In this document: positions 8,781 to 10,176 of the stretch, piece after piece | How the letters are laid out: each line of letters opens with the position of its first letter | Numbering within the stretch: position 1 is the first letter of the stretch | From: Candidatus Saccharimonadales bacterium | Lineage (GTDB): Bacteria > Patescibacteriota > Saccharimonadia > Saccharimonadales > JANWIN01 | NCBI GenBank assembly: GCA_038231155.1 | Contig: JBBRLY010000009.1 | Location: 1 to 51,610 of the forward strand | Length of the DNA stretch: 51,610 nucleotides | Direction of reading: 5' to 3' | Made by a program: the position numbers and the translations under genes | Notes under the pieces: model-generated | Databases searched by the model: none | Told to the model about the DNA's origin: nothing | The model's input: the letters and a program-made list of their open reading frames with translations, nothing else

Positions 8781-9425
8781 TTAACTTTTAGTTTGACTAC
8801 GGCGCCATTTTTCAATTTCGCCGTGATTGCCGCTTAATAAGACTTCTGGTACTTTTAGGTCTTTAAATTCCTCAGGTCGAGTGTATTGTGGAAATTCTAT
8901 GGTTTTATCGTCTTTTTGAAATGATTCTTTTTCTGCCGAGTTCTCACCTCCAAGAACACCAGGAATTAAGCGCACCACACTATCAATTATTATTAGGGCT
9001 GGCAGCTCTCCACCAGTCAATATGTAATTACCAATACAATACTGCTTGTCTATAAAATCTGTAATGCGCTCATCATAACCTTCATATCGCGGGCATACCA
9101 AAATAAGACCGCTAGACTTAGCTAGGCTTTTAGCATCGGATTGTTTATATAATTTACCTCTAGGTGTAGGCAAAATAACGGTGGCTTTATAATCTTTTTT
9201 CTTAGCTTCGGCAATGGCTGCCACAATTGGTTCAGGTTTTATTAGCATACCATCACCGCCTCCATAAGGAGTATCATCAACTTGCTTACGAGGACCTAGT
9301 CCGAAGTTTCGCAAATTGATATATGAATATTCTACAATACCCTTTTGCTTGGCTTTAAAAAGCATGCTTTGTTCTAGCATTGGTTTAACAATTTCTGGAA
9401 ATAAACTAATTATTTGTATTTTCAT
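8781..9425 (-). CDS. trmD: tRNA (guanine37-N1)-methyltransferase; likely start is the ATG at 9425 rather than 9449
   Basis: VDDTPYGGGDGML, CPRYEGYDER, YILTGGELPA, PQYTRP, LLSGNHGEI. Confidence 0.97.
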   Translation of the reverse strand: MKIQIISLFPEIVKPMLEQSMLFKAKQKGIVEYSYINLRNFGLGPRKQVDDTPYGGGDGMLIKPEPIVAAIAEAKKKDYKATVILPTPRGKLYKQSDAKSLAKSSGLILVCPRYEGYDERITDFIDKQYCIGNYILTGGELPALIIIDSVVRLIPGVLGGENSAEKESFQKDDKTIEFPQYTRPEEFKDLKVPEVLLSGNHGEIEKWRRSQTKS

Positions 9426-9443
9426 AGTAATTAATAGTATCAC

Positions 9444-9597
9444 AAACAAAATAACCCGCTAATCAGCGGGTTACATTGACACATAAAGCTCTCATCTTTA
9501 AGCTTTGGCTTTTAGATGACTCGCAGTGAGCTTTCCCGTATAGAAATTCTCAAGAAACTATAGCGGGTTTAATATTTAACGATCGTCAAAATGACTC
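9444..9597 (-). ncRNA. Candidate ~150-nt structured RNA (sRNA, 6S-like RNA or attenuator) between khpA and trmD
   Basis: Bounded by a sigma70 promoter and a terminator; two long internal hairpins (9535-9567, 9485-9534); no credible ORF. Confidence 0.5.
9452..9473 (-). terminator. Intrinsic terminator upstream of trmD
   Basis: 9-bp stem TAACCCGCT/AGCGGGTTA with a 4-nt loop, followed by TTTTGTTT on the minus strand. Confidence 0.75.
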
Positions 9598-9602
9598 GAA
9601 GC

Positions 9603-9631
9603 ATTATATATCGGTTAAGCTACCAACGCAA
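9603..9631 (-). promoter_or_regulatory. Sigma70-type promoter for the candidate RNA
   Basis: TTGCGT-N17-TATAAT. Confidence 0.65.
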
Positions 9632-9657: not shown

Positions 9658-10176
9658 TTAAACGTCAAGGTCATCAAATTCTTTAAGTTCTTTGCGAGTT
9701 CGGTCAATACGGTTTTCGTGCTCTTTGTCTTCTTCTTTGTCTTCGTCAGTTGAAGTAGCGGTTGTTGAACTAGCTGTTGAAGTTTCTGCTTGCGAATCTT
9801 CTGCATCGCTAGTCTCGTCAACCGTAGATTGTTCAGTAGAATCTTCAGTAATTGCCTGTGGTTCTAAATCTGGTGCACCCTCTTCACTATGACGATCTTC
9901 AAAACGGCGCTCTCTACGCTCTGGTGCTTCACCATTGTTGACAATTTTTAAATTGTAGCGGGCATCATTTTTAGTCCCAAGTGCTCTTAGTAAAGTTCGT
10001 AAACTTTGAGCTGTAGCGCCTCTTTTACCGATTACTCTACCTAAGTCTTCAGGGTCAACAGTTAATTCTAATAAGACGCCCTTTTCATCTATCCGCCGTT
10101 CAATAGATACGGCATCTGGTTTGCTGACTAAAGATTTAACGATAAATTCAACAAACTGTTGGTCAATGCTGCTCAT
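9658..10176 (-). CDS. khpA: KH-domain RNA-binding protein (KhpA/YlqC) with an acidic C-terminal extension
   Basis: VDPEDLGRVIGKRGATAQSLR GxxG motif; lies next to rpsP. Confidence 0.9.
   Translation of the reverse strand: MSSIDQQFVEFIVKSLVSKPDAVSIERRIDEKGVLLELTVDPEDLGRVIGKRGATAQSLRTLLRALGTKNDARYNLKIVNNGEAPERRERRFEDRHSEEGAPDLEPQAITEDSTEQSTVDETSDAEDSQAETSTASSTTATSTDEDKEEDKEHENRIDRTRKELKEFDDLDV

Follow-up and report, generated by a model that had tools for sequence, protein, structure and literature searches.

A candidate order-restricted family of independent small RNAs encoded between khpA and trmD in Saccharimonadales

The gap between khpA and trmD in a Candidatus Saccharimonadales genome very probably holds an independently transcribed, single-copy gene for a small non-coding RNA (positions 9597-9441, minus strand, of the 51,610-nt stretch of DNA that was analyzed, herein the window). 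The locus has the generic features of an sRNA gene: a conserved promoter of its own, a structure that forms on one strand and carries compensatory changes, and no conserved reading frame. Judged by sequence comparison, the RNA belongs to no Rfam family and is restricted to Saccharimonadales. The best explanation overall, to which we assign a probability of roughly 0.55 from comparative sequence analysis, is an order-restricted family of independent sRNAs that would act in trans through a conserved 3′ core.

Results

Genomic context of the RNA

On the minus strand the genes run in the order rnc, rpsP (10799-10254), khpA (10176-9658), a 232-nt gap, and trmD; rplS is not the next gene after trmD in the window. 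No ORF of note crosses the khpA-trmD gap, where the only AUG is followed by 0 to 14 codons. The features of the region are collected in Table 1.

The first-pass annotation placed the RNA in the position normally held by rimM. This stands as a positional match only, since none of 30 genomes of the order has RimM (PF01782), whether the RNA is present or not. Genomes without the RNA have khpA and trmD 9 to 69 nt apart, or unrelated genes between them. A replacement of rimM by the RNA was rejected, because RimM is missing both with and without the RNA, including where khpA and trmD abut in its absence.

The khpA-trmD junction is a recurrent insertion hot spot, where inserts as long as 2.7 kb flank the RNA on one side or the other, or take its place. 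These include opposite-strand ORFs of 124 to 191 aa (e.g., L003 1613-1987, L026 1548-2084, and L066 728-1237) and a NUDIX gene in genome G010, where the gene in the rimM slot is a NUDIX hydrolase. The KhpA proteins of the window and of related loci are ~150 to 190 aa long and consist of a KH domain and a long acidic tail, the end of which is a conserved (R/K)ELE(D/E)LDDLD(V/I/L); this tail is also kept in genomes that have no copy of the RNA.

Table 1. Coordinates of the features of the khpA-trmD region in the window
Feature	Positions	Strand	Remarks
khpA	9658..10176	minus	KH domain and acidic C-terminal extension; PF13083, E = 2.8e-22
-35 box TTGCGT of the sRNA promoter	9626..9631	minus	TTGnnn at the same spacing in homologous loci
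-10 box TATAAT of the sRNA promoter	9603..9608	minus	17-nt spacer; start predicted from sequence at ~9597-9596
P0, 5′-terminal hairpin GUCA-UUU-UGAC	9585..9595	minus	local hairpin, present in relatives
Hairpin A	9535..9567	minus	lineage-specific insert in the variable leader; folds in the minimum-free-energy structure
P1 5′ strand AAAGCUC	9528..9534	minus	invariant in 36 sequences; compensatory AAUCU/AGAUU in family f64
Asymmetric bulge ACUGCGAG	9520..9527	minus	8 nt on the 5′ side; UGCGAG invariant
P2 UCAUCU/AGAUGA	9492..9519	minus	variable tip (inner AAGC..GCUU); 5/5 pairs changed on both sides; 98.9% of cells paired
P1 3′ strand GAGCUUU	9485..9491	minus	near-invariant; covaries in f64
Junction AUGUG	9480..9484	minus	family consensus UAUGU; nearly invariant
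P3, intrinsic terminator	9441..9479	minus	stem 9474-9451; CAA/UUG extension, then U-tract
Extended -10 (TG-A-TACTAT) of trmD	9434..9442	minus	8 nt before the ATG; same arrangement in 91/112 loci
trmD (tRNA m1G37 methyltransferase)	8781..9425	minus	ATG at 9425; PF01746, E = 2e-52; probably leaderless mRNA

A single-copy RNA found across Saccharimonadales

The first search, of BLAST type and against 60 relatives, matched only the 3′ part of the gap. Alignment of 14 loci revealed a shared unit, and a first covariance model, covering the 3′ core, was built from five sequences. Covariance-model matches are present in 248 of 401 genomes of the same order (~60%) and in 169 of 255 genera, with one copy per genome except for two genomes that have two. 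The RNA is missing from ~38% of the sampled genomes of the order and is therefore not essential order-wide. All carriers found are uncultivated MAGs.

A second covariance model takes in the whole of the terminator helix; applied to a sample of 401 genomes from the phylum at large, it gave strong scores (>45 bits) within Saccharimonadales only. Two genomes of the same class that belong to other orders gave no match to the second model; four weak matches outside the order proved on inspection to be ordinary terminators that have neither P2 nor UGCGAG. Scanning 185,579 species genomes for the exact pattern gave at least 119 loci, and almost all of those listed are labeled as Saccharibacteria or Saccharimonadales MAGs. 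Pattern matches in contigs labeled Porphyrobacter, Steroidobacteraceae, and Ruminococcus fail the covariance model and are without khpA and trmD. A further match, labeled Oscillospiraceae (L176), has no khpA or trmD nearby, the covariance-model check having covered the other three only. Three contigs labeled Dormiibacterota, Nevskiaceae, and Woesebacteria (L096, L112, and L143, respectively) carry the Saccharimonadales khpA-RNA-trmD arrangement and match the model; these contigs are probably misbinned or mislabeled.

Searches of Rfam 15 with the whole window (gathering score), the region (E ≤ 10), and 20 homologous loci (E ≤ 5) returned nothing relevant; the families that the first-pass annotation had singled out for comparison (6S RNA, RF00013; riboswitches; ribosomal-protein leaders) gave no match. 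A literature search found no described sRNA of Saccharibacteria or of other CPR bacteria, nor any RNA of the present kind.

The core is conserved and covaries

The 162-nt stretch folds at -46.4 kcal/mol, compared with -32.1 ± 3.5 kcal/mol for shuffled sequences (z = -4.12; 0 of 200 dinucleotide shuffles as good). Across the family, conservation is concentrated in a 3′ core of ~85 nt that comprises P1, the UGCGAG bulge, P2, the UAUGU junction, and P3; the smallest homologs are ~85 to 100 nt long. A hairpin recognized earlier at 9534-9485 (AAAGCTC/GAGCTTT with an inner TCATCT/AGATGA) is present as described and corresponds to the conserved P1 and P2. The terminator is likewise present, with its stem and T-run, and is also detected by a consensus scan.

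Comparison of khpA-trmD intergenic regions, which had been suggested as a check on the structure, showed that the fold is conserved and that P2 and P3 covary strongly. Covariation was counted over 36 distinct sequences aligned to the covariance model. Overall, 97% of cells are paired versus 84% in shuffles, and 15 pairs are changed on both sides versus 7.2; on each of five measures the observed value is out of reach of all 500 shuffles, and the pairing drops by half when the partners are shifted by one column. The family helix of P3 has 14 pairs, a length it owes to pairing of the U-tract with the A-rich run that precedes the stem; 10 of these pairs are changed on both sides, and a C-G/U-A pair of the A-tract/U-tract extension covaries. 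Because G-U pairs are frequent, the structure can form on the khpA-sense strand but not on its complement.

Most families keep P1 (AAGCUC/GAGCUU) unchanged; the divergent family f64 has compensatory changes in it. The UGCGAG of the bulge is kept in 13 of 13 divergent members examined, while P1 covaries there. The junction takes the forms UAUAUGU and UAUUUGU in divergent members; the AUG that it contains varies and is thus not a conserved start codon.

Promoter and variable leader

The TTGCGT-N17-TATAAT promoter proposed for the RNA is present, and homologous loci carry a promoter in the same place. In the window, the site agrees with the consensus at 9 of 12 positions. Its -35 box, with 3 of 6 matches, falls below the per-hexamer cut-off of the consensus scan, which therefore did not list the promoter. 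A sigma-70-like site with at least 9 of 12 matches occurs in 79% of 138 loci versus 18% of shuffles, and over these loci the -10 box usually ends 40 to 50 nt before P1. The promoter can reach back into the upstream gene: in 25 of 109 loci a TTGAAG at the khpA codons for L-E-D/E serves as the -35 box, and TATAAT and the khpA stop codon often overlap.

Past the promoter, 72 of 109 loci have AGUC at a distance of 3 to 14 nt from the -10 box, followed by a loop and GAC, which places the 5′ hairpin ~7 nt past the -10 box. The first-pass annotation had instead paired TTGAC with GTCAA to enclose the whole RNA; this outer pairing is absent from the minimum-free-energy fold, and the relatives all have the local 5′ hairpin and the extended terminator helix instead. 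Between the hairpin and P1 the leader is variable, with extra hairpins in some genomes and only 9 to 15 nt in others. Hairpin A is found in the sequence and in the minimum-free-energy fold of this genome, but it is missing from the homologs, which usually have a AAAACAAAAA tract at that point. A-rich tracts of the AAAACAAAAA type occur in 64 of 109 leaders and are missing in this genome and in the minimal homologs.

A CGAGTCAT repeat that had been pointed out in the window was not found in relatives, and an 8-mer repeat is expected ~0.4 times by chance in ~230 nt. No closing helix between the A-rich leader and the U-tail was apparent, with -3.6 kcal/mol for cognate and -3.9 kcal/mol for non-cognate pairs (p = 0.91). 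One locus (L208 of genome G070, family f64; positions 1000-1060) has a second CUGCGAG immediately downstream of the 5′ hairpin, with the canonical UGCGAG bulge 13 nt farther on; this case is not general, second UGCGAG copies in leaders numbering 4 observed against 4.3 expected.

The RNA is separable from both neighboring genes

Of 145 distinct loci, 129 have a same-strand khpA ahead of the RNA and 131 have trmD behind it; most of the others are truncated by the end of a contig. Spacing on both sides varies widely. P1 begins only 17 to 50 nt past the khpA stop codon in many loci, and compact loci have the terminator 20 to 30 nt before trmD. At the other extreme, the distance from the khpA stop codon to P1 is 258 to 2684 nt in 12 of the 129 loci, and 191 to 2376 nt separate the RNA core from trmD in 33 of the 131 (25%), with opposite-strand ORFs in both loci read (L003 and L026). 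The compact loci that were read showed no terminator separating the RNA from the khpA stop codon; the upstream mRNA and the RNA therefore probably end at one and the same intrinsic terminator.

The gene downstream appears to be transcribed on its own. The TG-A-TACTAT promoter that had been assigned to trmD is present in the window, and a TAnnnT lies 4 to 10 nt (mode 7) before the trmD start in 91 of 112 loci (81%), TG-extended in 42; a Shine-Dalgarno-like motif is found in 9. The arrangement is alike in compact and interrupted loci. A -10 box this close to the start, together with the rarity of Shine-Dalgarno motifs, suggests that trmD is most likely expressed in this order as a leaderless mRNA from its own promoter.

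Since the RNA outlasts separation from either neighbor, has a conserved promoter, and is followed by a gene with a promoter of its own, these observations point to an independent gene rather than to an attenuator of trmD. The earlier inference of an independent ncRNA is thereby strengthened: the promoter is conserved, the structure covaries, the RNA is single-copy in the 248 genomes that were matched, and it persists when parted from khpA or trmD.

Discussion

A protein-binding core and its possible partners

As seen from these comparisons, the gene comprises a sigma-70 promoter, a 5′ hairpin at the predicted start site, a variable leader, and the conserved ~85-nt 3′ core. The leader is A-rich in most relatives, contains hairpin A instead in this genome, and can shrink to ~10 nt. 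The RNA would act in trans through the core, which may form a sequence-specific protein-binding platform and serve as a decoy, a scaffold, or a regulator. A platform of this kind is the most likely function of the core given that the near-invariant bases cluster at one helix, that P2 and P3 vary by compensation, and that the leader is dispensable. Conservation of this kind usually marks a specific site at which a protein or ligand binds and not an open antisense seed. P1 might just as well be near-invariant for the sake of a second pairing that excludes the first. We put forward protein binding through the core as a tentative mode of action, somewhat short of even odds.

None of 30 genomes of the order encodes Hfq (PF17209), and an Hfq-dependent sRNA was rejected on this ground. 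Apart from KhpA and KhpB, no global RNA-binding protein has so far been recognized in these ultra-small bacteria. In other bacteria that have no Hfq, both have only recently been recognized as global RNA binders (bioRxiv 10.1101/2023.10.30.564711; 10.64898/2026.10.12.757534). Both putative partners are encoded here: KhpA by the gene that adjoins the RNA gene, and a KH+R3H protein elsewhere in the genome. The latter, KhpB-like and 156 aa long, is encoded outside the window on the minus strand (contig C12:58259-58729); it combines a KH_KhpA-B domain with an R3H domain and has no Jag-N. A similar KH+R3H protein of about 134 to 217 aa occurs in nearly all of 30 genomes tested.

The locus resembles that of the KhpA/KhpB-associated sRNAs of F. 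nucleatum, C. jejuni, and S. pneumoniae in that its host is without Hfq and has KhpA and a KhpB-like protein, and in that the RNA gene adjoins khpA; it differs in that the association is here a putative one, KhpA is the same with or without the RNA, and the KhpB-like protein is without Jag-N. No KhpA alignment column discriminates the 127 genomes with the RNA from the 11 without, and the KhpB-like protein is present in genomes of both groups, so there is no co-evolution signal for the partnership. A limited literature search turned up no defined Khp-binding motif. From the gene content and conservation just described, we regard KhpA/KhpB as the first candidates for the partner, though doubtful ones. 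A more specific version, in which the RNA would be a dedicated, lineage-wide partner of a Khp dimer and the two near-invariant single strands on the flanks of P1 (UGCGAG bulge and UAUGU junction) would each bind one of its KH or R3H domains, is more speculative still.

The family also shares traits with CsrB/RsmZ, CrcZ, and 6S RNA, namely short conserved motifs displayed on a structured RNA and a housekeeping-like, single-copy gene with a strong promoter. Unlike these RNAs, it is built of one module without a repeated motif, is not rod-shaped, and has a partner that is only a candidate. Each RNA has a single UGCGAG site, second copies not being enriched, which sets the family apart from CsrB and other titrating RNAs.

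Base pairing with target mRNAs

The A-rich leader, the UGCGAG bulge, or the UAUGU junction might alternatively pair with target mRNAs in trans, either together with KhpA/KhpB or with no chaperone. We consider such a base-pairing regulatory sRNA unlikely, if a serious contender. The generic sRNA anatomy with its intrinsic terminator, the A-rich tract seen in more than half of the leaders counted, and a promoter inside or just past the upstream ORF all agree with it. This last trait recalls the type I 3′-UTR-type sRNAs, which have an internal promoter (e.g., DapZ and MicL of enterobacteria); here, too, the promoter lies in or just past the 3′ end of the upstream ORF, and the terminator is probably shared with the upstream mRNA. 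The differences are these: the host has no Hfq, no seed or target was found, the conserved element is a bulged helix rather than an open seed, and the RNA gene persists when detached from khpA. Against base pairing also stand the lack of the A-rich tract in this very genome and in the minimal homologs, and the location of the most conserved bases in and around a helix instead of in a long open seed. The junction region has no exact complement, and no above-chance complement was found elsewhere in the genome or in rRNA; searches for rRNA mimicry, rRNA complementarity, and exact-complement targets gave only 7- to 9-mers at chance level. One 16-nt look-alike, on contig C13, falls within a coding region and was set aside.

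A structured end of the upstream transcript

The element might instead act in cis, as a structured 3′ UTR that stabilizes and terminates the rpsP-khpA transcript and, as a bidirectional terminator, insulates the leaderless trmD promoter, with the internal promoter being incidental. The RNA always lies downstream of khpA on the same strand, often within a few tens of nucleotides of its stop codon; the A-tract/U-tract extension of the terminator suits both directions, and the trmD -10 box abuts the U-tract. Nevertheless, a plain terminator suffices in genomes without the RNA (L071), and a role confined to transcript ends leaves unexplained why UGCGAG, P1, and UAUGU are near-invariant across many carrier families, why the promoter is conserved, and why the RNA is retained in those loci where hundreds to thousands of nucleotides part it from khpA. 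This explanation is accordingly a distinctly unlikely one.

Attenuator, 6S RNA, and SRP RNA

Control of trmD by terminator read-through, with the RNA as a leader, attenuator, or riboswitch, was another possibility raised at the outset, and it now appears very improbable. Compact loci do place the terminator just ahead of trmD, the conserved core is aptamer-like, and AACCCGCUA could sequester the 3′ arm of the terminator in this genome. A quarter of the loci, however, have long intervening segments between the RNA and trmD, some with opposite-strand genes, and most have a -10 box of trmD at leaderless distance with almost never a Shine-Dalgarno motif. The mutually exclusive fold of AACCCGCUA with UAGCGGGUU exists in the sequence, but it breaks the conserved P1, needs hairpin A, and is thus specific to this genome; at -39.4 versus -46.3 kcal/mol it is 6.9 kcal/mol worse than the minimum-free-energy fold. 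A conserved antiterminator is impossible, given that the arms of the terminator change and the core upstream of them does not. Elements of the trmD operon such as the rpsP attenuator of E. coli and the L19 leader (RF00556) occupy the same rpsP-(khpA)-(rimM)-trmD-(rplS) neighborhood; the present RNA differs from them in having no Rfam match and in not lying upstream of a ribosomal-protein gene, and its setting differs in that trmD is self-promoted, rimM is absent, and rplS does not follow trmD.

6S RNA has a rod-like fold of about 150 to 200 nt with paired 5′ and 3′ ends, a large central bubble, and an apical stem. A divergent 6S RNA that sequesters RNA polymerase holoenzyme, the first-pass candidate, would account for a single-copy RNA with a strong promoter and for a 6S RNA otherwise unaccounted for in the seven genomes of the order that gave no RF00013 match (E ≤ 1; controls found). 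It can hardly be the identity of this RNA: RF00013 gave no match in the window (gathering score; E ≤ 10) or in the 20 homologous loci either, the core consists of two hairpins in series and the whole fold of three to four, there is no central bubble, no closing stem, and no cognate pairing of the 5′ and 3′ ends, the minimal members are too short, and over a third of the sampled genomes of the order do without it. SRP RNA was excluded because the phylum is without Ffh: the seven genomes gave no RF00169 match, an SRP54-type GTPase (Ffh/FtsY) was found in 0 of 121 Patescibacteria, RadA being the best weak match to such a GTPase, and this genome has no DTAGR motif. The lack of SRP in CPR bacteria has already been reported (PMC4508563, PMC8080830).

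Implications

An independent sRNA family acting in trans thus remains the reading that we favor. The RNA is strongly covarying and single-copy, has a sharply defined core, and is spread over most families of the order; it may be used as bait in pull-down experiments, as an Rfam model, and as a marker of a large subclade of Saccharimonadales. Were the proposed partnership with KhpA/KhpB true, the RNA would buffer or direct Khp activity and would represent a new kind of housekeeping regulator, one that resembles CsrB or 6S RNA and is encoded beside its protein.
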